This document shows, piece after piece, positions 1,008 through 37,164 of a DNA stretch of 37,164 nucleotides. The notes beneath the pieces were generated by a model, which worked only from the letters and a program-made list of their open reading frames with translations, did not search any database and was not told where the DNA came from. Numbering within the stretch: the first letter of the stretch is position 1; each line of letters starts with the position of its first letter. Origin of the DNA: a virus (taxonomy: Duplodnaviria; Heunggongvirae; Uroviricota; Caudoviricetes); the IMG/VR virus record IMGVR_UViG_2541047856_000006; one strand, given 5' to 3'. The translations under genes and the position numbers were made by a program.

Positions 1008-1985
1008 TTAAGCACCTCCTAGTGGATTAAACCTCACCGCATCCTGCAGGTAATCCGGCGCAAGATGGGCATAAATCATCGTTGTCTGAATCTTTGCGTG
1101 CCCCAGAATTTTCTGGAGCGTCAGAATATTGCCGCCGTTCATCATGAAATGACTGGCGAAGGTGTGGCGCAGCGCATGAACAGCCTGGCCGTCAGGAACA
1201 TCAGGTGCGACCGTTTTGATGACATCGCGAACCAATGAATAATCCAGCCTCGGAAACACCAGTTTCCCGCCCCGTTTTTTGATCTTTTCAAACAGGCTTT
1301 CAGAAATAGGAACGGTACGGTTTTTGCTGTTCTTCGTTTTTGAAAAAGTGATTCGACAATGAAGAACACGGCGCTGCTCCAGTGCCGCTACCTCGCCCCA
1401 TCGCGCCCCGGTCGACAGAAGGATTTCGACAGCCAGCCGCTCATCGGGATTTTCAGCCAGCGCATCCAGCAACTGAACACATTCAGACTTACTCAGGTAT
1501 CCCATTTCGCGCTCGTTAACCTTCATTCCTTTAAGGCCTTGAACGGGGTTATCGTTAAGAAAATGGCCGGATGAGATGAGTGCGGTAAACATCGCGCTTA
1601 ACGCCCCAATCTCTCGATTTATGGTGCTGGGCTGTATCCCCTGCTCTATCCTGGACACACGTAGCTCGGTGAGCATTGTTGTATTAAGTTTATGTACGCA
1701 CGGGTCATCCATTGCCTCACTCAAGCGCAGCAATTTAAGGCGCGTGTTATGCCCTGACTTCATTAGCTGGCCGTGGTATTTCCACCACAAGTCAATAAGC
1801 ACTGACAGAGGACGGCGATCAATAGAGTTTCCTTTCCACTCATTGTTATGCTGTTGCGCCAGCACCCACCGCTCATATAAAACTGCATCCGATTTCGTTT
1901 TAAATTTTTTGCGAATGCGTTTGCCTTTACGCCCCTCAGGGCGCATGTCAAGAAGATACCCTCCCGGAATTGATTTTATGCTCAT
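1008..1985 (-). CDS. int: P2-type tyrosine integrase
   Basis: C-terminal catalytic region HALRHTFASHFMMNGG...LGHAKIQTTMIYAHL. The N-terminus MSIKSIPGGYLLDMRPEGRKGKRIRKKF aligns with the remembered P2 Int start, so the start is placed at the ATG at 1985 rather than the upstream ORF extension to 2135. Confidence 0.93.
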   Translation of the reverse strand: MSIKSIPGGYLLDMRPEGRKGKRIRKKFKTKSDAVLYERWVLAQQHNNEWKGNSIDRRPLSVLIDLWWKYHGQLMKSGHNTRLKLLRLSEAMDDPCVHKLNTTMLTELRVSRIEQGIQPSTINREIGALSAMFTALISSGHFLNDNPVQGLKGMKVNEREMGYLSKSECVQLLDALAENPDERLAVEILLSTGARWGEVAALEQRRVLHCRITFSKTKNSKNRTVPISESLFEKIKKRGGKLVFPRLDYSLVRDVIKTVAPDVPDGQAVHALRHTFASHFMMNGGNILTLQKILGHAKIQTTMIYAHLAPDYLQDAVRFNPLGGA

Positions 1986-2034
1986 TCGTGAAACCCCAGC
2001 GTTACAAGACCACCATGCCCCCAGCGTTCCATGA

Positions 2035-2343
2035 TTAGCCGGGCTGTGTACCAGTCTTGCGGGATTTTTGAGAAGACGATGTGTTTTCTGGCCCATCAGG
2101 GGAGAGAGAGGGACTGATCTGCCCAGCAGCCTCATTCGTTTTTCCTGTCATAAGCCAATTCATGTACTTAAAAAAGCGAGGGTGATTAACAATCTTGATA
2201 AGCACTTCGCCCCCTATGTTTTCAATCCGCCCCGTTTCATAACGACGCAAAGTGCCGATAGGCACATCAATCAGGCCGCAAAATTCTTCGCGCGTTAAAT
2301 CCTCTGATTCACGAATCACTCTAATTTTTTCACCGATAAGCAT
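2035..2343 (-). CDS. C: Immunity repressor C (P2 C-like, helix-turn-helix)
   Basis: ~100 aa, directly upstream of int on the same strand and divergent from the early operon; the N-terminal helix-turn-helix-like segment and the tail ...SGQISPSL... resemble P2 C as remembered. Confidence 0.75.
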   Translation of the reverse strand: MLIGEKIRVIRESEDLTREEFCGLIDVPIGTLRRYETGRIENIGGEVLIKIVNHPRFFKYMNWLMTGKTNEAAGQISPSLSPDGPENTSSSQKSRKTGTQPG

Positions 2344-3614: not shown

Positions 3615-3724
3615 GTATATTTATCTCATGGCTTGTTCTGATTATTTCGGTGGTCTGCGCCATTGGGATTATGCGAATTATTAATTCAGTAAAAAAGATT
3701 GAACGCTTTTTCACTGAAGAATAA
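3611..3724 (+). CDS. Putative small membrane protein (37 aa)
   Basis: ATG overlaps the previous stop (ATGA). Translation MSIFISWLVLIISVVCAIGIMRIINSVKKIERFFTEE has one hydrophobic helix. It is below the length cut-off of the ORF track. Confidence 0.35.
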   Translation: MSIFISWLVLIISVVCAIGIMRIINSVKKIERFFTEE

Positions 3725-3810
3725 CCGCGCAAATAAGACCCTAGGTTAAATAAGAAAATGTGAAAACAATCCGCATTCGCGGAGGTATTCGCACACGCCA
3801 AGGAGGCGTA

Positions 3811-4014
3811 ATGGCAATTAAGCATTTTCCTGTCGTTCGTTTCACTTCCAGAGGACGTGAATACGAAGTCGACGAACGCCTGATTACCACAATCGACAAA
3901 CACCGCTCAGAAAAGGATGCACACCACATCTATCTCACTGACGGTACTTACTTCTGCGCCACTAATGTGGCGCGGGTGAATCTTATCCGACAGGTACAGG
4001 ATCCACGTAAATGA
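3811..4014 (+). CDS. Hypothetical early-region protein
   Basis: ORF frame 3760..4014; the ATG at 3811 is preceded by AAGGAGG. Confidence 0.5.
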   Translation: MAIKHFPVVRFTSRGREYEVDERLITTIDKHRSEKDAHHIYLTDGTYFCATNVARVNLIRQVQDPRK

Positions 4015-4337: not shown

Positions 4338-4727
4338 ATGATTGACGCTCATGACTTCACAAGATGGGTGCGCACACAGGACACCCGTCTGGCTCCCATT
4401 CTTCAGGGATTATTTGATCTCTACATCCGTGGTCGTGACAACAGAGCACGCACCACAAAACCGGAGAATGCGGACACCCTTTATTTCACAGTAGACGACT
4501 GCTACCGCGTGGATTTCACACCACACGGGCTGGCGTTGCACTGCCTGACACCACACGGCGAATCACTGCTGGCGTATTACGACTCCCCGGCCTCCGTATT
4601 TGCGGCAATGCTGGCGCATCGCACTGCTGGCGGGTGTGCCTCGCTGAGTGAATACACCGCTGAATTTAACCGCCTTTCCGCCATCTTCTCGCAGGAGTGG
4701 CAGCGCGTGACGGGATACCAGCCATGA
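4338..4727 (+). CDS. Hypothetical protein immediately upstream of A (position of P2 B; homology not established)
   Basis: 129 aa; its stop overlaps the A start (ATGA). Confidence 0.5.
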   Translation: MIDAHDFTRWVRTQDTRLAPILQGLFDLYIRGRDNRARTTKPENADTLYFTVDDCYRVDFTPHGLALHCLTPHGESLLAYYDSPASVFAAMLAHRTAGGCASLSEYTAEFNRLSAIFSQEWQRVTGYQP

Positions 4728-7549
4728 GTGAGTTTGCATGGAGCTGGAATGAACCACGGCCAGCCATTGATCCGGCCAGATTTACGGAGCGCAGGCAGGA
4801 AACTGAAACCGACCTGCAACGCGCCATCCGTTACTACCTTGAGGCGGACAAAAGGGCACAGGAAGAACAGGAAGCGAAGGAAGAAGCCTTTTTCGCACAA
4901 TCCTCCATGGGTAAAAAACTCATGGCATCCCTTGAGGAAGCCGGACAGCGTGAAAAGCTGGCACAGAGCATCATCAGTAAGCGCCGGGCAACAGAACAAG
5001 ACCCGGTAGCCCGTGCCTTTGCCACACTAAAGGCACTACCTGTTTATCTGCGTGAACCACTGAGCCGCCACCTCTCTTTCCTGCGCAAAAAACAGGAAGC
5101 CGATCGCCAGAAAGGCAAAAAGAGCTGGCAGGCGGAACGCTATGCACGCGGAACCCTGCGCAAAATATTCGAACGTCTGGATCGCACTGACGGACGCTGG
5201 CTGACACCGGGTTATCGCTCCCTTGCCGGGCGCGAACGCCTGGACGATTTGCTTTACCTGCCGCAGCTCAACAAGCACCAGATACAGACGCTGGCCACCA
5301 TGACCGCGGCGATGTTCAGCAGCACCTTCGAAACACTCTGCGATGGCTTTGGTGCCAGAGATGGCGAGCTGACCATGGATGTAATGTTGAAGGCTTACCG
5401 GATGCTGGCTCGTATCGCATTACGCCTGCACATCATGCCGCCACATTACGAAGCCCTGAACAAGAGCGAACCGGATACGGAACTGCTGCCGGGCGCAATC
5501 CTTCGCCTGACCTGTGCGGACTGGTGGAAACGCAAACTGTGGCTGTTACGTTGTGAGTGGAGAGAAGAACAACTCCGCGCCGCCTGTCTGGTTTCCAGAA
5601 AAACATCACCCTATCTGAGCCAGGACGCGTTAAGCGAGTTTCGCGCACAGCGCGAGAAAACCCGCGACTTCCTGAAGAGCTTCGAACTGGAAAACGAAGA
5701 CGGCTTCACGATTGATCTCGAGACAGTGTATTACGCGGGAGTAAGTAACCCGGTTCACCGTAAGGCAGAAATGATGGCCACCATGAAGGGACTGGAACTT
5801 CTGGCCGAAGCCCGTGGCGACAAAGCGGTGTTTCTGACTGTCACCTGCCCGTCAAAATACCACGCCACAACAGAGAACGGTCATCCGAATCCCAAATGGA
5901 ACGGGGCCACCATGCGCGACTCCAGCGATTACCTGGTTAACACCTTTTTTGCGGCGGTCCGCAAAAAACTGAACCGCGACGGCCTGCGCTGGTATGGCAT
6001 CCGCACGGTGGAGCCTCACCATGACGGCACCGTGCACTGGCATATGATGGTCTTTGCTCATCCGGAAGAAATCGACAGCATCGTGGCCATCACCCGCGAT
6101 ATTGCCATTCAGGAAGACCGCCACGAGCTGGGCAATGATATTACTCCGCGCTTTAAGGTGGAGTACGTCGACGGCTCCAAAGGCACGCCAACCAGCTACA
6201 TCGCCACCTACATCGGAAAAAACCTGGACAGCCGCGCCGTGGATGGAATCGATCCGAAAACGGGCAAACCACGCGTTGACCACGAAACCGGAAAATCAAT
6301 GGCCGAGAGCGTGGAGCGCGCCATCGGCTGGGCGCGCCTTCATCGGGTCCGCCAGTTCCAGTTCTTTGGCATCCCCTCCCGTCAGGTGTGGCGTGAACTG
6401 CGCCGCCTTGCCAGCCAGATGGCACGCAACCCGGAAGGCCCGCAACGGCTGAAGGATGACGCAATGGATGCGGTACTCGCTGCCGCCGATGCCGGGTGTT
6501 TTGCCACCTACATTGAAAAACAGGGCGGCGTACTTGTTCCACGCAAAGACTACCTGATTCGCACTGCCTACGACCTCGCAGATGAGCTGAACGATTACGG
6601 CGAACAGAGCGTACAGATTTACGGGATCTGGTCACCACTCATCGGGGAATCCTCCCGTGTGTGCACGCATCCGGATAACTGGAAGCTGGTAAGACGTAAA
6701 CCGGAAGCGGAAGACAGCGCCCGCGAAAATGGTTTTGACCTTCAGGGCGGCCCAGCCGCCCCTTGGACTCGTGGCAATAACTGTCCCCGTGTACAGGAAA
6801 CGAACAACAACGGGACAGAACAGCCGGAAGAACGGCCAGCACCGTGGCCGCAGCTCCCTGACGGCGTTGAAGTGAATGAATGGATGCGCTCACTGAAACG
6901 GCACGAACGCCGGGCGCTGATGCGTTCGCTGCGTGACAAACAGGCAAAAAACAGCAGTGATGAAATGCAGAGCTGGACACAGAGCCGCAAACAGCAGCGG
7001 CCTTTGCCTGATAACCACGAATTACTCGCTAAAGAATGGCGGGAGTCTGCTGAATCTCTCGGCCTGCATATCGGTGAACAGCAGATGCAGCACCTGTTAC
7101 GGGGCGGCAGTCTGTACGTTGACGGCAGCATCATTGCACCGCAGGGATTTGAAATTGTACGCAAACCGGATACCCGACCGGACAGCCGGATCACGCAGCT
7201 CTGGCAGCGCCTGAGCCGTAACCACGGCGTAAGCAGCACGGAGATCCGCCATAACCCGGTCGTCAGCTACCTGGAACAGCTGGGGGCATCAGACCCCGAA
7301 GCCGCCGCACGCCTGGCATTCACACTTCAGCAGGACCAGAACACCATGAAAACACCCGTTACCGTGCTTTCTGACATGCTGCGCGCCATCCGCGACGCAG
7401 AGCACGCACAGAGAATCAGTGAAACCACTGAACGCGCCCGCCGCAAAGCAGACCTGCTGCGGGGTGGCCTGACCAGTGGAAACAAAAAACAGACAGAAAC
7501 GGGATTCACAAATCCCGTAAATGAGCAAAAAACGCGCCGCGATATATGA
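4724..7549 (+). CDS. A: Rolling-circle replication endonuclease (P2 gpA family)
   Basis: HUH-type motif HDGTVHWHMMVFA and paired tyrosines YIATYIGK. The ATG at 4724 overlaps the upstream stop. The C-terminal region is longer than the ~760 aa remembered for P2 A. Confidence 0.93.
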   Translation: MSEFAWSWNEPRPAIDPARFTERRQETETDLQRAIRYYLEADKRAQEEQEAKEEAFFAQSSMGKKLMASLEEAGQREKLAQSIISKRRATEQDPVARAFATLKALPVYLREPLSRHLSFLRKKQEADRQKGKKSWQAERYARGTLRKIFERLDRTDGRWLTPGYRSLAGRERLDDLLYLPQLNKHQIQTLATMTAAMFSSTFETLCDGFGARDGELTMDVMLKAYRMLARIALRLHIMPPHYEALNKSEPDTELLPGAILRLTCADWWKRKLWLLRCEWREEQLRAACLVSRKTSPYLSQDALSEFRAQREKTRDFLKSFELENEDGFTIDLETVYYAGVSNPVHRKAEMMATMKGLELLAEARGDKAVFLTVTCPSKYHATTENGHPNPKWNGATMRDSSDYLVNTFFAAVRKKLNRDGLRWYGIRTVEPHHDGTVHWHMMVFAHPEEIDSIVAITRDIAIQEDRHELGNDITPRFKVEYVDGSKGTPTSYIATYIGKNLDSRAVDGIDPKTGKPRVDHETGKSMAESVERAIGWARLHRVRQFQFFGIPSRQVWRELRRLASQMARNPEGPQRLKDDAMDAVLAAADAGCFATYIEKQGGVLVPRKDYLIRTAYDLADELNDYGEQSVQIYGIWSPLIGESSRVCTHPDNWKLVRRKPEAEDSARENGFDLQGGPAAPWTRGNNCPRVQETNNNGTEQPEERPAPWPQLPDGVEVNEWMRSLKRHERRALMRSLRDKQAKNSSDEMQSWTQSRKQQRPLPDNHELLAKEWRESAESLGLHIGEQQMQHLLRGGSLYVDGSIIAPQGFEIVRKPDTRPDSRITQLWQRLSRNHGVSSTEIRHNPVVSYLEQLGASDPEAAARLAFTLQQDQNTMKTPVTVLSDMLRAIRDAEHAQRISETTERARRKADLLRGGLTSGNKKQTETGFTNPVNEQKTRRDI
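7496..7521. promoter_or_regulatory. Palindromic element 1 (ACGGGATT-caca-AATCCCGT)
   Basis: 8-bp perfect inverted repeat at 7499..7518 with AAA flanks, inside the 3' end of A. A near-identical copy lies 73 bp downstream. Confidence 0.5.
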
Positions 7550-7568
7550 AGCGCGCATAAAACAGGCA

Positions 7569-7594
7569 AAAACGGGATTTCAGAATCCCGTAAA
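7569..7594. promoter_or_regulatory. Palindromic element 2 (ACGGGATT-tcag-AATCCCGT), putative ParR-binding centromere/operator
   Basis: Same 8-bp stem at 7572..7591, ~35 bp upstream of parM. The pair flanks an AT-rich GATATAT segment. Confidence 0.5.
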
Positions 7595-7625
7595 CGATTA
7601 ATTAATCAACATAAGGAAAAGCGAC

Positions 7626-8585
7626 ATGAAAATTTGTATCGATGACGGCTCCACCAACATCAAGCTGGCATGGACTGAGAACGGCGAACGCCGCAACGCC
7701 ATCAGCCCGAACAGCTTCAAGTCGGAATGGTCTGCGCCGTTCGGTGGCACGCAGCCCGCGAACTACATGCTTGATGGCGTGCGCTATGGTTTTGATCCGG
7801 TCAGCGATCGCTTTGTCCAGACGACCGACACGCAATACCAGTACAGCGATGTGAATGTCATTGCCATTCATCACGCGCTGGTCAAATCAGGCATCACACC
7901 ACAGGAAGTGGATGTGGTTGTCACCCTGCCACTGAGCGAGTATTTCGACACAAACGCACAGCCGGACATGGCCAACATCAACCGCAAAAAAGCAAACGTC
8001 ATGCGCCCGGTGGCGTACCAGAACGGAAAAGCATTCACTATCCGTAACGTACGGGTTATGCCTGAATCCATTCCGGCTGGTTTTAAAGCACTGGCTGACA
8101 TGAGTCCGTTTGAATCCCTGCTGATTGTGGATTTAGGCGGAACCACGCTGGATGTGGCAAAGGTTCAGGGGCAACTGGCAGGTATCAGCCAGGTGTTTTG
8201 CGATCCACACGTAGGCGTTTCTCTGATGGCCAATGCCGTACTGTCGGTGATGGCCACTAACGGTATGCGCACCAGTCACCACATCGCCAATACCATTATC
8301 GAACATCGCCATGATGAAGCCTGGCTGCGCCAGCACATCCACAATGACGCGCATTACGCCAGCCTGATGGCGGTTATTCGTGAAAAGGAAGAAACACTGA
8401 AACAACGCGTGATCCGCGCGCTGGCGGGTTTTTCGGGTTACGGGCGGGTGATGGTTGTCGGTGGCGGGGCGGAGATTGTGGCACCCGCTATCCGCGAAGC
8501 CTGCGGAGTTAATGCGACTTTCATCGCGGACGGGGTGCCACAGTTTGCTCTGGTTAATGGGCTGTACGCAATGGACAAGGAGTAA
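7626..8585 (+). CDS. parM: Actin-like segregation ATPase ParM/StbA
   Basis: N-terminus MKICIDDGSTNIKLAW...ISPNSFKSEW...YSDVNVIAIHHALVKSGI closely matches the remembered plasmid R1 ParM; DLGGTT and VVGGGA phosphate-binding motifs present. Confidence 0.88.
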   Translation: MKICIDDGSTNIKLAWTENGERRNAISPNSFKSEWSAPFGGTQPANYMLDGVRYGFDPVSDRFVQTTDTQYQYSDVNVIAIHHALVKSGITPQEVDVVVTLPLSEYFDTNAQPDMANINRKKANVMRPVAYQNGKAFTIRNVRVMPESIPAGFKALADMSPFESLLIVDLGGTTLDVAKVQGQLAGISQVFCDPHVGVSLMANAVLSVMATNGMRTSHHIANTIIEHRHDEAWLRQHIHNDAHYASLMAVIREKEETLKQRVIRALAGFSGYGRVMVVGGGAEIVAPAIREACGVNATFIADGVPQFALVNGLYAMDKE

Positions 8586-8589
8586 ACCA

Positions 8590-8901
8590 ATGACGACACC
8601 AACCAGACGGATAAGTTTCTATCTGAAGCCCGCCGCCGTCAAGAACGAAGGCGAAGCATGCGCATGGCTGGACAGCCTTACACCAGAAGCCCGCAAAAGC
8701 GGCCAACGCGTGGCTTTTCTGGCCGGGCTGGCACTTCTGAAAATGAATCCGGCAGAGGCTTACCGACTGGCTGCATGGGCTGACGATGAGACGTTATCAG
8801 TGACACAAACCAGGACAGAACGCCCCGAGTCACAGCCAGTACCAACCGCACAGATAACCAGTCAGATGGCCGGAAATATCAGGGCGTTATTTCCTGAATA
8901 A
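8590..8901 (+). CDS. parR: ParR/StbB-like centromere-binding adaptor
   Basis: 103 aa directly after parM; MTTPTRRISFYLKP...AFLAGLALLK resembles the remembered R1 ParR N-terminal ribbon-helix-helix region. Confidence 0.65.
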   Translation: MTTPTRRISFYLKPAAVKNEGEACAWLDSLTPEARKSGQRVAFLAGLALLKMNPAEAYRLAAWADDETLSVTQTRTERPESQPVPTAQITSQMAGNIRALFPE

Positions 8902-8964
8902 CACAACATCAGGGCGAGTTCGCCCTGCTCTCCACCTCAGAACATAAACAAGGAGAACGACATA

Positions 8965-9489
8965 ATGAGCGAAATCAACTATCAGGCATTACGTGAGGCA
9001 GCACAAAACTATCAATCGACGCTGGCGTGGTATGAGGCCATCGCGGATAACCCAAATGCTGAGCAGGATTGTAACGAAGCAGTGGCGGCGTTTAAGCGTC
9101 AAATCCGTCATCAGGAAATGGACATTATCGCCGAGCTGCTGGAAGAACTGGAAACCAAAGACAACAGGATCGCTGAACTGGAAAAAATCGCCACTGACCA
9201 TGCACTTAAATTCCAGAAAGCACAGGACGCATTAAAGCATACCGCTTTGCTGCATAGCCGGACGGCGCAACAAACAAATAATTTTGCAGTATCGCTTCCG
9301 GACATAAGCGAATATTTCATTAATGACGTATTTCAGCCCTTGCGATACGAGCGGGATGTTGAAAGAGCCATCATAAAGGCTGGCGGAAAAGCATTGTGGC
9401 AGGAGAAACACGAGGACAGAACGCATCAGTCCTGCGATGTAAATTGTGGATGGTTTAGCCCACTGACGACAGATAAAAATAACACCTGA
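8965..9489 (+). CDS. Hypothetical coiled-coil protein
   Basis: 174 aa; good spacing from an upstream AAGGAGA; central predicted coiled coil (ELLEELETKDNRIAELEKIATDHALKFQKAQDALKH). Confidence 0.55.
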   Translation: MSEINYQALREAAQNYQSTLAWYEAIADNPNAEQDCNEAVAAFKRQIRHQEMDIIAELLEELETKDNRIAELEKIATDHALKFQKAQDALKHTALLHSRTAQQTNNFAVSLPDISEYFINDVFQPLRYERDVERAIIKAGGKALWQEKHEDRTHQSCDVNCGWFSPLTTDKNNT

Positions 9490-9501
9490 TCTCCCTCAAA
9501 C

Positions 9502-9527
9502 CAGGGCGATAATCGCGCATCGCCCTG
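9502..9527 (+). other. Stem-loop after the accessory operon (possible terminator)
   Basis: CAGGGCGAT-aatcgcgc-ATCGCCCTG, 9-bp stem; no clear T-run follows. Confidence 0.4.
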
Positions 9528-9979
9528 CTGCACAATAGTGCACAAATTTGCACAATTTTTTTGAACGACTTTTTACCCTTCAGGCCCGCATGGCGGCTGG
9601 ATCCGTCAAGGATCCGTGCATGCACAAAAAAACGCGTTTTTTCTGCGCGCAGGTGACGGGGGAACAGCCCGCGTTTCAGGGGGTAAATAGTATTCCCTGA
9701 GCGATGTCGCAGCGACATAACAGAATGGCCATATTTCTCACGCTGAGCGTGAAAAAGATGTGAGGGCTTTTGATTTGATGGGGTGAAAGGTAAGGCCGTC
9801 AAAATCGCACTGAGGCGGTGAGAACATGCAGTCAGCGCGGTGGGATTGCGTAAGAGTCTGACCGTCGATGATGGTAATAAACAGGAAAGCGTCGTGAAAT
9901 TATCTGATTGATACAGGAGCTGGAGAGTCGGGGCATAAATTTTTTATGCCCCGCCGAAGCAGCAGACAAGCGAAGCGCG
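9528..9979. other. Non-coding, palindrome-rich region; probable cos/packaging region
   Basis: ~450 bp with no credible ORF, next to portal and terminase. Contains several short palindromes (AAAAACGCGTTTTT, ATGTCGC/GCGACAT, TCACGCTGAGCGTGA) and a GGGGCATAAA-ttt-TTTATGCCCC hairpin at 9928..9950. The exact cohesive-end sequence was not identified. Confidence 0.4.
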
Positions 9980-11026
9980 TCAGGATGTGGGCTGGGTGTC
10001 TAACAGTGCGTAAGGGTTAAAGCGAATCACCTCTTCGCCAAGCCAGTCATTGATGTGCTTCATGGCCTCCATGACGGGCATCAGCTCGTTAATTGCGTAA
10101 ACCCGCGCGGCCTTCTCCACATCACCAAACGCACTTTTTTCGCCTGGCATCGCCCCCATCAGTTGCGGCGGAACGCGGTGCGCAGCCAGCACATCATCAC
10201 GGGATGCCACCTTAACATTCATGAACTCATCCTTTGCGGTGATCTGCTGGAACGGCAAAATTTGCACCCCCTCTTTGCCACCGTTGGGCGCATGAATGAG
10301 CACGTTTTTAAACGCACCACCACCACGCGCACCCTGTAGCGTTTCTTTCAGGGAGTCCATGCTTTCGCGGTTTACCTGCGCTGCACCGATGTAGATGATG
10401 CACCCGGCGTGGGATCCGTTGTCGTAATACAGTTTTCTGAACATGTCCGCCGAATGAGACAGGCTGGCCGAGAGTAATGCGCCGAGATATTCCGGCATGC
10501 CGTAGATTTCCTGGTTAATGTCAGGATTCATCAGGTGGCACACTTTGCCAGGGCGAAACTGAAACGCGTCCTTGCCATCCTGCACATACCACCATGATTC
10601 AAGATCGCTTCCGCGTCGCATGTATTTCGCCAGGGCGTGCCGTAATTTAAGCGGTTCGCCGAGCATATTGCTTCGAAGCTCAAGGAATGCGTTACCGAAC
10701 ACAAACCAGTCCAGCGCCAGCGCCGAGAAATCCTGCCGGGAAAGCAACGGGTGCGGGATGTAGCAACCGAGTAATACATTGCGCTTAAAGTAAAGCGCAG
10801 ACTGATGCCAGGACGTTTGCCGGGCAGCTCTTGCCAGACCGTACCAGTCCACCGGGGTTTCATACCACCGCCCGTTATCAGCACAGTACATATTGTCCAG
10901 CAGGTCATGCCCGGTCAGGCGATAAGGACCATCAAATGTGAATGCACTGAGCGATGATTCTTTCCTGAGCGCATCAGCGAGATCAATGCGTGAACTCATG
11001 CGCACTTTTTTATTTTTTCTGCTCAT
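9980..11026 (-). CDS. Q: Portal protein (P2 gpQ-like)
   Basis: 348 aa, directly downstream of and overlapping the large terminase; size and position match P2 Q. Confidence 0.88.
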   Translation of the reverse strand: MSRKNKKVRMSSRIDLADALRKESSLSAFTFDGPYRLTGHDLLDNMYCADNGRWYETPVDWYGLARAARQTSWHQSALYFKRNVLLGCYIPHPLLSRQDFSALALDWFVFGNAFLELRSNMLGEPLKLRHALAKYMRRGSDLESWWYVQDGKDAFQFRPGKVCHLMNPDINQEIYGMPEYLGALLSASLSHSADMFRKLYYDNGSHAGCIIYIGAAQVNRESMDSLKETLQGARGGGAFKNVLIHAPNGGKEGVQILPFQQITAKDEFMNVKVASRDDVLAAHRVPPQLMGAMPGEKSAFGDVEKAARVYAINELMPVMEAMKHINDWLGEEVIRFNPYALLDTQPTS

Positions 11027-21188: not shown

Positions 21189-23423
21189 ATGAGTACCACA
21201 ACACGAAAATTTAAAACCGTTATCACCGATACAGGTGCCAAAAAATTAGCTCAGGCAGCCGCTCCAGATGGTAAGCCTGTCCGCCTGACTCATATGGCCG
21301 TGGGCGACGGTGGCGGCACGTTGCCCACACCAGACAGTAAGCAGACCCGTCTGGTGCATGAGGTGTGGCGACACACTGTTAATCGCGTCATCCTGGACGC
21401 AACACATCAGAACCGCATTATTGCGGAGCTGGTTATTCCTCCTGAAACGGGCGGATTCTGGATCCGGGAAATTGGTGTATTTGATGAGCACGGCGATTTA
21501 ATCGCGGTGGGCAATACTGCCGAAAGTTACAAACCAACCGTTGCCGAAGGGTCCGGACGTGCACAAACATTTCGCACCATTCTGACCGTATCCAGCACGG
21601 CCACCGTGGCGCTTACCGTGGATAACACCATGGTGATGGCCACAGTGGATTACGTGGATGACAAACTGAAAGAGCATGAACAGTCACGACGTCACCCGGA
21701 CGCCTCGCTGACCGCAAAAGGCTTTGTTCAACTCAGTAGCGCCACTAACAGCGTGTCTGAAACGCAGGCTGCAACGCCGAAAGCGGTTAAGGCCGCGTAT
21801 GACCTTGCTAACGCAAAATATACCGCTCAGGACGCCACGACGGCACGAAAAGGCCTTGTCCAGCTCAGTAGCGCCACCAACAGCACGTCTGAAACGCAGG
21901 CTGCAACGCCGAAAGCAGTAAAGGCCGCGTATGACCTTGCTAACGCAAAATATACCGCTCAGGACGCCACGACGGCACAAAAAGGGATAGTCCAGCTCAG
22001 TAGTGCCACCAACAGCACGTCTGAAACACTGGCCGCGACATCGAAAGCGGTTAAGGCGGTAATGGATGAAACGAACAAGAAAGCGCCCTTAAACAGTCCT
22101 GCGTTGACCGGAACGCCAACAACGCCAACTGCGCGACAGGGAACGAATAATACCCAAATCGCAAGCACGGCTTTCGTTATGGCTGCGATTGCCGCCCTTG
22201 TAGATTCGTCACCTGACGCACTGAATACGCTGAACGAGTTAGCGGCGGCGCTGGGAAACGACCCGAATTTTGCGACCACCATGACTAACGCGCTTGCGGG
22301 TAAGCAACCGAAAGATGCCACCCTGACGGCGCTGGCCGGGCTTGCTACTGCGGCAGACAGGTTTCCGTATTTTACGGGGAATGATGTTGCCAGTCTGGCA
22401 ACCCTGACAGAAGTCGGGCGGGATATTCTTGCGAAATCGACCGTTGCCGCTGTTATCGAATACCTCGGTTTACAGGAAACGGTAAATCAGGCTTCTGGCG
22501 CATTACAGAAAAAACAGAACGGCGCAGATATTCCGGGAAAAGATACCTTCACCAAAAATATTGGGGCCTGTCGCGCATATAGCGCATGGCTGAATATTGG
22601 TGGCGATAGTCAGGTCTGGACAACTGCGCAATTTATTTCGTGGCTGGAGAGTCAGGGGGCATTTAACCATCCTTACTGGATGTGCAAAGGCTCATGGGCT
22701 TATGCAAATAATAAGGTCATTACAGATACAGGTTGCGGAAATATTTGTCTTGCAGGTGCTGTGGTGGAAGTTATTGGCACCCGCGGCGCAATGACCATAC
22801 GCGTTACCACGCCGAGCACGTCCAGCGGTGGCGGAATCACTAACGCTCAATTCACTTATATTAATCATGGTGATGCTTACGCTCCTGGCTGGCGACGAGA
22901 CTACAACACGAAAAACCAGCAGCCTGCATTTGCTTTAGGGCAAACAGGACGCAGGGTCGCAAATGATAAAGCTGTTGGCTGGAACTGGAATAGCGGCGTT
23001 TATGATGCAGATATCAGTGGCGCATCGACATTAATCCTCCACTTTAATATGAATGCGGGGAGTTGCCCTGCTGTACAGTTCCGCGTGAATTACAGAAATG
23101 GCGGTATCTTTTATCGTTCAGCGCGTGATGGTTATGGCTTTGAAGCTAACTGGTCAGAGTTTTACACCACAACACGCAAACCCTCTGCGGGAGATGTTGG
23201 TGCATATACGCAGGCAGAATGTAACTCAAGGTTTATTACAGGTATTCGCCTTGGCGGTCTGTCATCTGTTCAGACATGGAATGGTCCTGGCTGGTCTGAC
23301 AGGTCAGGTTATGTCGTTACTGGTTCAGTTAACGGAAACCGTGATGAATTAATTGATACAACTCAGGCAAGGCCAATTCAGTATTGCATTAATGGAACGT
23401 GGTATAACGCGGGGAGTATTTAA
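21189..23423 (+). CDS. H: Tail fibre protein (gpH-like), constant N-terminal part plus currently expressed variable C-terminal part
   Basis: 744 aa with three tandem ~43-aa repeats (VQLSSATNS.SET.AAT.KAVKA...); a recombination site lies inside the gene at 22453..22478. Confidence 0.9.
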   Translation: MSTTTRKFKTVITDTGAKKLAQAAAPDGKPVRLTHMAVGDGGGTLPTPDSKQTRLVHEVWRHTVNRVILDATHQNRIIAELVIPPETGGFWIREIGVFDEHGDLIAVGNTAESYKPTVAEGSGRAQTFRTILTVSSTATVALTVDNTMVMATVDYVDDKLKEHEQSRRHPDASLTAKGFVQLSSATNSVSETQAATPKAVKAAYDLANAKYTAQDATTARKGLVQLSSATNSTSETQAATPKAVKAAYDLANAKYTAQDATTAQKGIVQLSSATNSTSETLAATSKAVKAVMDETNKKAPLNSPALTGTPTTPTARQGTNNTQIASTAFVMAAIAALVDSSPDALNTLNELAAALGNDPNFATTMTNALAGKQPKDATLTALAGLATAADRFPYFTGNDVASLATLTEVGRDILAKSTVAAVIEYLGLQETVNQASGALQKKQNGADIPGKDTFTKNIGACRAYSAWLNIGGDSQVWTTAQFISWLESQGAFNHPYWMCKGSWAYANNKVITDTGCGNICLAGAVVEVIGTRGAMTIRVTTPSTSSGGGITNAQFTYINHGDAYAPGWRRDYNTKNQQPAFALGQTGRRVANDKAVGWNWNSGVYDADISGASTLILHFNMNAGSCPAVQFRVNYRNGGIFYRSARDGYGFEANWSEFYTTTRKPSAGDVGAYTQAECNSRFITGIRLGGLSSVQTWNGPGWSDRSGYVVTGSVNGNRDELIDTTQARPIQYCINGTWYNAGSI
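21717..22080 (+). repeat. Tandem ~129-bp repeats (about 2.8 copies) inside H
   Basis: Near-identical nucleotide blocks encode KG(F/L/I)VQLSSATNS(V/T)SETQAATPKAVKAAYDLANAKYTAQDATTA(R/Q); they also generate spurious antisense ORFs. Confidence 0.85.
22453..22478. other. Invertase crossover site (gix/hix-like), left
   Basis: TTATCGAATACCTCGGTTTACAGGAA inside H; inverted copy of the site at 25503..25528; matches the remembered Gin/Hin recombination-site consensus. Confidence 0.85.
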
Positions 23424-33258: not shown

Positions 33259-36057
33259 CTAAATCTCAGCAATCTTTTTTTTACTGTGCTGTTCTATTAT
33301 CCACTCTGCTTCCGCTTGGTATTCATGAGCTAACTCTCGAAGAATTCGGGCAAATCGATGAAAGCCTAGAAGTTCCATTGCATCAGACTTAGTATGATAT
33401 TGTTGGGCCAACTCCAATTCCGGTTTACCTTCAGGGTCAACAATGTAGACACCACGCGAATTTATTACCGCATTCTTATAACCAGTACGCACTTTATCAA
33501 GTTCACGTCTATTCAAAAACTCGGCCAGTTCTGGAAGTATCCAATGCTCGTCATTTGCAGGGCTAAAAATTAATATGCTTCCAATTCTATGATAAGCAAA
33601 ATCTAAATGGCCTGACTTTTCGCATTCTGTTTGAACAAAATCAAACCAGTTATTAAACGCATTGGCATCAAACTTGCCTTCAGCATCAACACCCGGAATC
33701 TTTTTCCAATCATCAAGTAAATAGCGTGAGTTTTTGGCAATATTTATTTCACTTTCAGATAGTTCTTTACTTGCTTTTTGAAATTCTGATCGATACGCAT
33801 ATTGAATGACTTCACAAAAAAAACTGGGTTCACTTGCTAGTTTTTTCTCTAATACTTGAGGATGCAACGAATCATTGGCTCCCCTGTTAATTACAGGCAG
33901 GTATGCCCATTCAATCTTTACTAAGTCGTCATCTGAAACAGTGTTATCATTTTGAATATAATTCACAAGTTCATTAAATGAGTGAATATCAAACCGCTCA
34001 ATATTTTCTGTGGTTCTAATTGATTGCAATAGAGCAAGCACAACCTTGCTGCTATCAACTAAATTATCGATATGTAAAATTCGAGATAAACAATCTATTG
34101 CCATCAAGGGACGGTCTACTTTAATCAAGCAATCTACAGCAAAATAAATTTCTTCCGTTGAATCACAGCAGTATGCATTAACATGGGTATTTTTCCAATA
34201 CTCGAAAGGAAAATCATCAAATGAAGCGTTTAATGCATCCCACGTTTCTTTTTTAAACGGTAACAAAAGAAAAAAAGCAATCTTTTCTTGAGCACTCCAG
34301 TCATTAATAACTGCCAACACCCATGATTTTCCTTCTCTGTAGTTCTTAGCCTGTACATAACCAGAAGCAAGAGAATTTTCCTTTTTAATATCACTAACAA
34401 TAAGTTTTTTCAGTATATCTAAAGGGATTTCTAGATCTTCTGCGACCAGACTACTACCAACAAACTCAGGTCTTTCAATAGAAAGAGAGAATTCTAAGAC
34501 TCCGTCAATACCATTAACAGTATATATTTCGTATATTGATTGCCCTCGTTCTTTTGTCAACCTTTCTTCTTGGTCCCGCCAGTTTCCATTTTCATCAAAT
34601 AGGAAGTAACTATTTTGTGCAAAAAGTCGTTTGCTATAAAGCATAGGATTTTCGGGCTTCAAGACTGTAGAAACATCTTTGATTTTTTCATTCTGTTCTG
34701 GTTGTATTGCCCAATAAGCACCTGAGAATCTTTTGTTTTTGTTATAAACTTCTAAACATTTTTCCCACACCGCCAACTTCAATTCAGCACTATCTGTTTT
34801 TTTAGAAAAATCATACAATAATTTAATTGCATCATCGAATTTAAATGGCGCTAAACTACCAATATTTTCAACTAAATCAACAAGTCTTAATGATGATTTA
34901 CTTGCCAATTCAATTGTTAATTGAGTGTATCTTTCAATCTGAGTACGACACTCATCATCCGATGGCCTTTTATTAAAACCGTTAGGAATAAAGTTTCTAA
35001 AAGTTGGAATATGTGTGCCAGATGTTACTTGCGTGTTGTTGGGTAACAACTGAACTAAAACACGCCATGCTGTATCGGGCCACTCCCTTGCCAATGCTTT
35101 GAAAGCAGCAATACGTCTATCTATATCAGCTGTAGTATGAGGAAGCCATGGTAACAATATGTTGATTATCGAGTTAAGTGGCCTGTTAGCCCAATTGCCA
35201 CCAGGATCATGGCTATCCAGCTCCCCTAATATTACTAAAGAGCGAGATAAATAGTTAGGCGCCCAAGCTAATCCTTCAATAGCCCATAGCAGTCCTGTCA
35301 TATAATTCCGACCTGAAATTCCACCGATACCTTCCTGTGCAAAAAGTGAATCAAATGGCTTGTCTTGGTGAGATGCAGCATTTTCCACTTCGTCGATAAA
35401 ACAGTCAGGAGCACTTTCCGCAAGCATAACTTGAATATCTTGCGTACTAGCCCATAATTGCCAGCTAGAAGCCGAAAAAACCTCTTTAACCACACTTGAG
35501 GCGCAATATTGCCCTTTATATTTTGAGCAATTAGTAAGTAACTCTTGCTTTGTTGCAACTAATGCCAACCCTTCGGATAGTCCTTTCCTTATTAATCGGC
35601 TATGTGGTAAAACCTTCCCATAAATTACTGCTGCATAACGCTCTTCAGGTGCCAGTTCAAATTGTGGGTCGATTGTTTTAAAAACGGATACAACAGTCGT
35701 CCGAAACAAATCCAAATGATCATCGAATAATCTTGACGATACCGTTTGAAATGTTTGTATTCTATCTTTAAAACTCCAAGAACCTCTCTCATGAATCAAA
35801 GGACTATCTTGCATCCCTTCAATTATTCTTATTTTTCGAATCCAACTGTCATATGACTCGCCAATAAGGCTTGTAATTATATTAATATCACCATTATTTT
35901 TTTCATCCCAGCAACCGACTAAAACAGCAATCGCTAACTCAGTCGCATAATCAACATTATCAATATTGTATATAGTTAAGTTACCAGCAACATTATGGCC
36001 TGTTCCGGCATGATTTTGACTAACTGAACTGCAGCTATGAATGTTATCCATAGACAC
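33259..36057 (-). CDS. Large hypothetical protein (932 aa) in an AT-rich island; function unknown
   Basis: Long uninterrupted ORF, AT-rich and clearly different in composition from the flanking phage genes. No Walker A, helicase or recognisable nuclease motif was seen by eye. GTG/ATG start coupled to the stop of the upstream small gene. Confidence 0.65.
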   Translation of the reverse strand: MSMDNIHSCSSVSQNHAGTGHNVAGNLTIYNIDNVDYATELAIAVLVGCWDEKNNGDINIITSLIGESYDSWIRKIRIIEGMQDSPLIHERGSWSFKDRIQTFQTVSSRLFDDHLDLFRTTVVSVFKTIDPQFELAPEERYAAVIYGKVLPHSRLIRKGLSEGLALVATKQELLTNCSKYKGQYCASSVVKEVFSASSWQLWASTQDIQVMLAESAPDCFIDEVENAASHQDKPFDSLFAQEGIGGISGRNYMTGLLWAIEGLAWAPNYLSRSLVILGELDSHDPGGNWANRPLNSIINILLPWLPHTTADIDRRIAAFKALAREWPDTAWRVLVQLLPNNTQVTSGTHIPTFRNFIPNGFNKRPSDDECRTQIERYTQLTIELASKSSLRLVDLVENIGSLAPFKFDDAIKLLYDFSKKTDSAELKLAVWEKCLEVYNKNKRFSGAYWAIQPEQNEKIKDVSTVLKPENPMLYSKRLFAQNSYFLFDENGNWRDQEERLTKERGQSIYEIYTVNGIDGVLEFSLSIERPEFVGSSLVAEDLEIPLDILKKLIVSDIKKENSLASGYVQAKNYREGKSWVLAVINDWSAQEKIAFFLLLPFKKETWDALNASFDDFPFEYWKNTHVNAYCCDSTEEIYFAVDCLIKVDRPLMAIDCLSRILHIDNLVDSSKVVLALLQSIRTTENIERFDIHSFNELVNYIQNDNTVSDDDLVKIEWAYLPVINRGANDSLHPQVLEKKLASEPSFFCEVIQYAYRSEFQKASKELSESEINIAKNSRYLLDDWKKIPGVDAEGKFDANAFNNWFDFVQTECEKSGHLDFAYHRIGSILIFSPANDEHWILPELAEFLNRRELDKVRTGYKNAVINSRGVYIVDPEGKPELELAQQYHTKSDAMELLGFHRFARILRELAHEYQAEAEWIIEQHSKKKIAEI

Positions 36058-36377
36058 TACCTCGTAATTTTATTTCCACCAATATTATCACCAGTGCCAC
36101 TATGGTTTTGAATAATGACAGTTGTTGCATGAGGTTTTATAGACGAGAGTATTTTTTGAATTTCACTACTATCCAATAGTTTTCTTTCAATTGCTATTTC
36201 ACTCATTTCATCGTTCAAAGACAGTTTTTCAAGTTCTTTAGCTAAAGCAGGGGCCACAGCCTCATCAACAACCCAATTTTTTAACTTTGCTTTTATTGAA
36301 GTTGCAGTAATCGAAACATGATGTTTGAGCATGTCATAAACTATGCCAGAAAGTATCGTCGAAGATAAAAAATCCAT
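36057..36377 (-). CDS. Small hypothetical protein (106 aa), first gene of the island operon
   Basis: Same strand and composition as the 932-aa gene; its C-terminus (IIQNHSGTGDNIGGN) echoes the N-terminus of the large protein (SQNHAGTGHNVAGN). Confidence 0.6.
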   Translation of the reverse strand: MDFLSSTILSGIVYDMLKHHVSITATSIKAKLKNWVVDEAVAPALAKELEKLSLNDEMSEIAIERKLLDSSEIQKILSSIKPHATTVIIQNHSGTGDNIGGNKITR

Positions 36378-36572: not shown

Positions 36573-36833
36573 ATGTTCCGTTGCCCGCTTTGTGGCGCAT
36601 CTGCCCGCATCCGTACCAGTCGTCCGGAAAATGATTCAAATACCGTGCGGCAAAAGTATTACCAGTGTAACAACTTGGAATGCGGCGTCTGCTTCTCAAC
36701 ACTGGAAGCTTTCCATAAGTTCACATCAAAACACGCCTCAAGTGTTCACTCTTCAGAGGGTATCCCGTGGCATGCTCTGCCTGCTTCACACAGGGGAAAC
36801 AGTCAGATGAGTTTGCCCTTACCTCAGGATTAA
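36573..36833 (+). CDS. ogr: Late-gene transcription activator, Ogr/Delta zinc-finger family
   Basis: MFRCPLCGASARIRTSR...YYQCNNLECG matches the remembered P2 Ogr Cys4 zinc finger (MFHCPLC...YHQCQNVNC); preceded by GGGAGG. Confidence 0.9.
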   Translation: MFRCPLCGASARIRTSRPENDSNTVRQKYYQCNNLECGVCFSTLEAFHKFTSKHASSVHSSEGIPWHALPASHRGNSQMSLPLPQD

Positions 36834-36893: not shown

Positions 36894-37157
36894 ATGGTCG
36901 GAGGGAATACCCGAAGGCCAGATGTGGAAAGGCCCCGGAAAACATTTCTGTTTAACCGAGGCCCTAACCGCATTACCTTGACAAGTGAAAGGTTAGCGCC
37001 TCTCCGGAAAAGGAGCAAGTGCTATGTCGCAAAAATCGCTTACGGCCATCACGTTCTGCGTGACGGCAATCCTCATCATCTGGATGCTGCACGGTTCGCT
37101 GTGCGAAATACGGATGAGCTTCTGGGGAGCGGAGTTTGCGGCGTTCTTACAGTGTAA
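36894..37157 (+). CDS. Possible mok-like overlapping reading frame of the hok locus
   Basis: 87-aa ORF that fully overlaps the start of the hok-like gene in another frame, as mok does in hok/sok loci. Call rests on position only. Confidence 0.3.
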   Translation: MVGGNTRRPDVERPRKTFLFNRGPNRITLTSERLAPLRKRSKCYVAKIAYGHHVLRDGNPHHLDAARFAVRNTDELLGSGVCGVLTV

Positions 37158-37164
37158 GCAGTAA
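37024..37164 (+). CDS. hok: Hok/Gef-family type I toxin (small membrane peptide)
   Basis: 46 aa MSQKSLTAITFCVTAILIIWMLHGSLCEIRMSFWGAEFAAFLQCKQ: N-terminal transmembrane helix, then the SLCE(I/L) and E.AAFL.CK motifs of Hok-family toxins; AAAGGAG upstream. It ends at the window edge. Confidence 0.7.
   Translation: MSQKSLTAITFCVTAILIIWMLHGSLCEIRMSFWGAEFAAFLQCKQ

Follow-up and report, generated by a model that had tools for sequence, protein, structure and literature searches.

The integrated prophage in the IMG/VR virus record IMGVR_UViG_2541047856_000006 belongs to the P2 family and is P88-like (Xuanwuvirus). The whole stretch of DNA that was analysed, 37,164 nucleotides (nt), is called the window here. 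Downstream of its replication gene A are two open reading frames, parM and parR, which together with upstream repeats resemble the partition loci of plasmids. The original prediction, made from the sequence letters, had assigned positions 7626..8585 to a ParM/StbA actin-like ATPase, with a ParR-like adaptor downstream and palindromes upstream, in a module extending from 7496 to 8901. These coordinates bracket the parts exactly. The features of the locus are as follows, with protein lengths in amino acids (aa).

4697..7549, plus strand: gene A, rolling-circle replication endonuclease (gpA) of the P88 type, 950 aa (Pfam Phage_GPA, E-value = 5.7e-130)
7483..7524: distal 42-nt direct repeat with the palindrome ACGGGATTCACAAATCCCGT at 7499–7518, candidate parC (centromere), part 1
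7533..7555, plus strand: small CGCGC-N13-GCGCG inverted repeat that encloses the stop codon of gene A (7547–7549) and lies between the two palindromes
7556..7597: proximal 42-nt direct repeat, containing the palindrome ACGGGATTTCAGAATCCCGT at 7572–7591, candidate parC, part 2
7626..8585, plus strand: parM, actin-like segregation ATPase, 319 aa, with the Shine-Dalgarno sequence AAGGA at 7613–7617
8590..8901, plus strand: parR, predicted ribbon-helix-helix-type centromere-binding adaptor, 103 aa, beginning 4 nt past the parM stop codon
8910..8927: G+C-rich hairpin CAGGGCGAGTTCGCCCTG right after parR, with no T-run on the plus strand, at the onset of variable cargo
8965..9489, plus strand: gene for an Ead/Ea22-like protein (Pfam scan)
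9538..9565, plus strand: terminator-like site, stem GTGCACAAATTTGCAC followed by a T-run, the first intergenic one on this strand past the end of gene A

The ParM aa sequence is covered end to end by two Pfam domains, both above the curated cut-offs. These are StbA_N at residues 1–157 (E-value = 6.9e-82, 273.5 bits with a cut-off of 24.6) and the ParM C-terminal domain at residues 159–316 (E-value = 2.5e-68, 229.6 bits with a cut-off of 27.4). The sequence also matches PHROG 691, "partition protein", with an E-value of 6.7e-90, and aligns with the R1 plasmid ParM in the PDB (1mwk) across residues 2–316 with 47% identity (E-value = 1e-92). The motifs IDDGSTNIK, MPESIPAG, DLGGTTLD and GGGAE, which form the phosphate, catalytic and adenosine motifs, are identical to those of R1 ParM. 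Sugar kinase, Hsp70 and MreB were considered as other identities and rejected; their Pfam matches are below cut-off, with E-values of at least 1e-4 versus 1e-82 for ParM. No NCBIfam model reaches its cut-off for either ParM or ParR.

The ATG at 8590 is the preferred start of parR, and its Shine-Dalgarno sequence AAGGAG sits within the 3′ end of parM; the TTG at 8455 given in the open reading frame list would overlap parM. ParR matches the Pfam family Plasmid_stab_B (PF10784) over profile positions 1–71 of 72 (E-value = 5.4e-25) and PHROG 2515 with an E-value of 7e-59. As a single sequence searched against the PDB, ParR gave chance antibody matches only. A profile built from six sequences (this ParR and five plasmid or phage ParRs) matches the structure of the pB171 ParR, 2JD3, with an E-value of 4.6e-16. 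A profile search had been named in the original prediction as a means of checking both families, and it places ParM and ParR where that prediction had put them, the non-partition actin-like families all falling below their cut-offs.

The C-terminal tail of ParR, NIRALFPE, aligns with KKNAMKLIN of the R1-type protein and with NIKNLFP of another plasmid ParR. The motif N-[IA]-x-x-[LM]-[FI] is common to the phage ParR, the R1-type and other plasmid ParRs, and the tail is a candidate for docking to ParM. At least three ParR alleles, approximately 53–57% identical to each other, are found behind a near-invariant ParM and the same upstream sites. The window carries allele 1 (8590..8901); other alleles compared with it are at 3691..4005 in the related locus L002 and 6965..7279 in L008. 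Residues 4–15 of ParR (PTRRISFYLKPA, the predicted DNA-reading strand) are unchanged in all nine copies over the three alleles, as is the C-terminal motif N-I-x-x-[LF]-F-P, while the linker in between varies freely.

Pairwise ratios of nonsynonymous to synonymous substitution (dN/dS) for parM range from 0 to 0.175 with a median of approximately 0.06 (nine copies, 36 pairs), and ParM identity among relatives is 97–99% where that of gpA is 86–96%. Thus parM is under strong purifying selection. For allele 1 of parR, dN/dS is 0.15–0.44. As judged from sequence, the locus is almost certainly an intact type II (ParMRC-type) DNA-segregation cassette, consisting of a ParM homologous to that of R1 and a ParR adaptor.

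Candidate centromere and expression signals

Two perfect 20-bp palindromes of the form ACGGGATT-N4-AATCCCGT are situated upstream of parM, within 42-nt repeats that start 73 bp apart. The palindrome pattern has two matches in the window versus 0.10 expected by chance, and two matches were seen in none of 100 shuffles; the palindromes of the original prediction are thus real features of this DNA. The distal palindrome falls within the last 17 codons of gene A, in a gpA tail that is specific to the P88 lineage. Among relatives, variation is seen in the outer bases and in the 4-nt spacer (TCAG or TAAA; CACA, CACG or TACG), with the inner arms GGGATT/AATCCC largely preserved. This pattern of conservation fits a protein-binding site and a hairpin equally. 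Arm changes that favour an RNA hairpin on one strand over the other number 3 versus 1, which is too few to decide between the strands.

The inverted repeat at 7533..7555 reads CGTGC...GCACG in phages 520873 and 503458, where both arms are changed and the pairing is kept. It may be an RNA or DNA element.

The candidate sites differ from those of R1. The R1-type parC consists of two arrays of 11-bp direct iterons around the promoter, whereas the phage locus has two palindromes that lie partly in gene A. Other plasmids and the plasmid-prophage D6 have unrelated upstream repeats, some of them palindromic; those of D6 begin with TCTCAAAT.

Promoter and terminator calls were made by consensus scans only. 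A gap of 76 nt separates gene A from parM. The scan found no sigma-70 promoter with 9 or more of 12 matches, and no plus-strand terminator-like site between the two genes. The best promoter candidate has 7 of 12 matches, and its −10 element, CAGAAT (TAAAAT in relatives), is at the centre of the proximal palindrome. Two weak terminator-like sites with 5-bp stems are found on the plus strand inside the parM coding sequence. As there is neither a strong promoter nor an intergenic plus-strand terminator between gene A and parM, the likeliest predicted mode of parMR expression is read-through from gene A, that is, from the early replication operon. The site at 9538..9565 is the probable end of a rightward transcription unit that comprises A, parM, parR and the Ead/Ea22-like gene.

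The region 7300..9700 shows 13 terminator-like hairpins versus 3.7 expected. Nine are on the minus strand, both palindromes included. This excess may keep late transcription, which runs leftward out of the Q-P operon, from entering the early genes. Similar G+C-rich hairpins (CAGGGCGA...TCGCCCTG) at 8910..8927 and approximately 9503..9528 flank the Ead/Ea22-like gene, and a related hairpin is present 3′ of parR in P88 and other relatives. The paired hairpins look like cassette boundaries of the variable region.

Linkage of parMR to gene A

A search of 50,697 phage records showed ParM homologues in 16, which are 14 P88-like phages and D6 (two records, 48% identity). Homologues of gpA were found by tblastn in 384 phage records; 14 have an identity of more than 84%, and the other 370 are at 45% or lower and align only to approximately residue 806 of 950. 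The same 14 records hold both the P88-type gpA and parMR, and ParM is found in none of the 370 others. They include P88, P884B11, PhiR44_2, Chuche and Citrobacter phage PhiSM; all are P88-like, classed as Xuanwuvirus or unassigned Peduoviridae, and their 1.6-kb parMR segments are 95–98% identical. The gpA segment from approximately aa 807 to 950 (7117..7549, some 144 residues) is specific to the P88 lineage, shows no Pfam domain and co-occurs with parMR.

In E. coli, approximately 1355 genomes contain the 3′ half of a P88-type gene A. The parMR pair was found in 1308 of the 5426 complete genomes (24%), at 1456 places of which 1454 are chromosomal. Strain VL40 has a recombinant gpA without the P88-type C-terminal third and is also without parMR. 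An E. albertii locus has the same gpA-parMR arrangement beside a portal protein that is just 30% identical. A degraded prophage remnant in O157:H7, which we take to be CP-933T, has gpA, parM and parR intact next to an insertion sequence. P88, the other Xuanwuvirus phages and this remnant show 95–98% DNA identity and 98–99% ParM identity to the window, with the same flanking gene A. They are unlike the window only in the cargo downstream of parR, which in the window is the Ead/Ea22-like gene. Because the genes 3′ of parR differ between relatives, the variable hotspot begins after parR.

On these comparisons parMR appears to be part of the P88-type replication module and not swappable cargo. The original prediction had placed the cassette between gene A and cos, where P2 carries its tin/old accessory genes. 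The position between gene A and Q/cos holds; the likeness to tin/old-type cargo does not, since parMR is co-inherited with the P88-type gene A.

Outside this lineage the sequence relationships are distant. Thousands of enterobacterial plasmids encode a ParM that is 40–52% identical and none encodes one between 52% and 95%; no intermediates between the phage type (>95% identity) and the plasmid type (52% or lower) were found in phage and plasmid records. Among species-representative genomes there are near-identical copies only, in E. albertii, Salmonella and a "Vagococcus" assembly that is probably contaminated.

The R1/R100 parMRC (stbAB) locus has the same gene order of sites, parM and parR. 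Its ParM is similar over the full length with the same nucleotide-binding motifs, and its ParR shares the Pfam family and resembles the phage protein in its C-terminal ParM-binding tail. However, the replicon here is an integrating P2-family phage and that of R1 a low-copy plasmid, the phage ParR has 103 aa versus 116 and is 33% identical over 63 residues, and no strong promoter was found at the phage locus.

The original prediction called a partition system in such a phage unexpected. It is in fact common, in view of the 24% of complete E. coli genomes that carry it, and it is already labelled in RefSeq ("plasmid segregation protein ParM" and "plasmid partitioning/stability family protein"). 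PHROGs families exist for both proteins. The literature search found no functional study of the P88, Xuanwuvirus or CP-933T parMR. A "putative plasmid partitioning system" at the same gpA-gpQ locus has been reported in about a quarter of E. coli P2-like prophages, with plasmid maintenance suggested as its role (Rousset et al., 2022; PMC9122126). The frequency is similar to that found here, but in that study the system is one of the hotspot systems, whereas here it appears fixed to one gpA lineage. Thus both the presence of parMR and the plasmid-maintenance idea were already known, as annotation and as a published remark. What is added is the co-inheritance of parMR with gpA, the purifying selection, the chromosomal residence and a candidate centromere of the palindrome type. 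Nothing in the window exceeds what is present in many identical copies elsewhere, and as a finding in this particular DNA it adds little. More widely, the cassette is present in integrated prophages of roughly a quarter of sequenced E. coli strains, where it is under strong purifying selection.

Possible role of the cassette

The products of P2-type replication are double-stranded monomer circles, plasmid-like as substrates, and the linkage of parMR to gpA indicates phage DNA as the substrate. The reading preferred here, to which we give a probability of roughly 0.45, is that parMR acts on extrachromosomal replicating phage circles and not in the long-term plasmid upkeep of the prophage. A partition complex would form on the phage DNA as ParR dimers occupy the two 20-bp palindromes, one on either side of the gene A end. 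The conserved C-terminal tail of ParR would catch ATP-ParM filaments by their ends, and filament growth would drive the parC-bearing circles apart. The system would work on the extrachromosomal circle under gpA rolling-circle replication, after infection or induction, when parMR would be expressed with the early operon by read-through from gene A. The effect may be to space or position monomer circles for efficient replication, as proposed by analogy with AlpC/AlpA of prophage CGP3, or to supply each daughter with copies while the cell is still dividing, ahead of integration or lysis, or both.

In the AlpC/AlpA/alpS system of the Corynebacterium glutamicum prophage CGP3, AlpC and AlpA are induced early and tie the excised circle to filaments, and efficient replication needs them (PMC4446434). 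The likeness to parMR is one of architecture only: an integrated prophage, an actin-like protein with a DNA-binding adaptor, and a site upstream of the operon. In contrast to the present ParM, which is near plasmid ParM, AlpC is by its description a member of a distant actin-like family, in an actinobacterium. If the preferred reading is true, AlpAC would have in parMR an equivalent from Gram-negative bacteria whose actin-like component is a true plasmid ParM, and the idea of cytoskeleton-assisted phage DNA handling would extend to enterobacterial P2-like phages. The broader statement, that a ParMRC is hard-wired to the gpA initiator in a very common lineage of integrating P2-family coliphages and serves their extrachromosomal phase, is put forward tentatively. 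If true, partition systems would be a normal part of the replication module of an integrating phage and not a mark of phage-plasmids.

Several points weigh against an extrachromosomal role. A need for segregation in a lytic burst is not obvious. The palindromes also resemble intrinsic terminators on the minus strand, and there are two sites versus the ten iterons of R1. The timing of expression is drawn from consensus scans, and the weak promoter in the proximal palindrome could instead drive autoregulated parMR expression in lysogens.

The published suggestion of plasmid maintenance (PMC9122126) agrees with the phage-plasmid lifestyle raised in the original prediction, in which ParMRC would partition a low-copy plasmid prophage as an alternative to integration, for example in hosts without attB. 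The cassette is homologous to proven plasmid-stabilising loci, and the P1-like plasmid-prophage D6, the only other phage in the records searched with a ParM of the same family, uses a StbA/StbB pair that is 48% identical. Unlike the P88-like phages, D6 persists as a plasmid, with no comparable lifestyle of integration. The window also contains a Hok/Gef toxin gene, which is the second of the R1-type stability functions. Further, the PLSDB record pZ1323PEC0009-2 (NZ_CP148288.1) is a 34,461-bp circle consisting of a whole P88-like genome, in which gpA, ParM and ParR are intact and the portal and tape-measure genes are frameshifted, so that virions may not form. A defective phage that lives as a plasmid, an excised form and a noisy assembly are all possible readings of this circle. 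The phage variant to which the circle belongs is chromosomal in 322 of 322 places found in the E. coli collection, a sister isolate at 99.9% identity included; the collection is without the assembly of the circle itself. The assembler may therefore have captured an excised form. Two of the large or fragmentary PLSDB records were opened, and one is a captured chromosomal segment (Salmonella pS2122_1) and the other an unplaced linear contig (Shigella); four other large-record matches (228 kb to 1.41 Mb) were left unopened. The window itself is integrated, all but two of the 1456 places in complete E. coli genomes are chromosomal, and the prophage keeps an integrase and a cis-acting rolling-circle initiator, with no plasmid-type replicon found. 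Up to three matching places per genome, not necessarily separate prophages, have near-identical parC and ParM, and partition incompatibility would therefore be expected if these were plasmids. A phage-plasmid lifestyle is thus poorly supported, with the 34.5-kb circle as the one exception, and we consider it unlikely. We favour instead the other alternative of the original prediction, a filament co-opted for another purpose. Were the plasmid state supported, P2-like phages would join the phage-plasmids.

It is less probable again that parMR is an accessory function expressed in the lysogen, which would interfere with elements that use a related ParMRC, such as IncF-type plasmids or D6-like phage-plasmids, or would otherwise benefit the host. 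In P2-like phages the gpA-gpQ locus houses old/tin as well as many defence systems that have been validated (PMC9122126), plasmids with a ParM 40–52% identical are numbered in thousands among the enterobacteria, and the degraded O157:H7 remnant retains an intact gpA-parM-parR. But neither ParM nor ParR matches a PADLOC model, and the module is fixed beside one gpA type, with no hotspot-like shuffling. Cross-talk is also disfavoured by the low similarity of ParR to the R1-type protein, by a tblastn search that finds no plasmid ParR, and by an R1-type parC that differs in sequence as well as architecture. An action on the host chromosome while the prophage is integrated, with parC as an extra chromosomal segregation site, would agree with the chromosomal location of nearly all copies and with genes that are intact even in remnants. 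We know of no precedent for a prophage cassette that serves chromosomal segregation. Moreover, several integrases and sites are used (P88 and the plasmid-record variant share only 44% integrase identity), the variants adjoin different host genes (pdxB, ihfA, pheA), so no consistent position is served, and the gpA linkage points to phage DNA as the substrate. This explanation is very improbable. We regard as equally improbable a relic without function, left by an earlier recombination between plasmid and phage and carried along with gene A. Common descent alone may explain why parMR is linked to one gpA lineage exclusively; the low dN/dS (approximately 0.06 for parM, <0.45 for parR), however, contradicts a relic. 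The ATPase motifs are intact, the N-terminus and C-terminal tail of ParR are conserved over three diverged alleles, and ParM is more conserved than gpA.

Other features of the prophage

The first bases of the window are present in 5426 of 5426 complete E. coli genomes, and the left edge is therefore host flank. A C-type repressor gene is present. Between gene A and the portal gene there are three plus-strand genes, parM, parR and the Ead/Ea22-like gene. Other features are as follows.

1008..2135, minus strand: tyrosine integrase
9980..11026, minus strand: portal gene Q, of a P2-type portal/terminase pair that runs on the minus strand from 9980
21698..22093: three tandem 132-nt repeats inside a tail-fibre gene
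33259..36377, minus strand: two-gene cargo 3′ of gene D
36573..36833: Ogr/Delta-like zinc-finger gene
37024..37164: Hok/Gef toxin gene, 46 aa, its stop codon ending at the final base of the window

A direct-repeat search of the window for att repeats found none, and Rfam and tRNA scans of the window gave zero matches. In a close relative the genes beyond the Hok/Gef gene are ihfA and pheT. With a hok gene and parMRC in one prophage, counterparts of both R1 stability loci are carried; no Sok-type RNA near hok reaches Rfam thresholds.

The Salmonella record pS2122_1 (NZ_CP110658.1), entered as an IncHI2A "plasmid", contains a P88-like prophage with sopE that is bounded by IS26. The chromosomal genes ffh, rpsP, trmD, pheA and tyrA are found around the prophage, and the record represents either IS26-mediated capture or misassembly.

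The first gene of the 33259..36377 cargo encodes a 932-aa protein with no Pfam or PADLOC match. The second encodes a 105-aa protein with a Het-E N-terminal domain (E-value = 7.5e-38), and the RefSeq name in relatives is GapS6a. These two genes probably constitute a defence pair of the GAPS6 type, situated at the other P2 hotspot. The tandem repeats at 21698..22093 have identities of 100%, 89% and 66% to the first copy and are situated in the 744-aa tail-fibre gene at 21189..23423.

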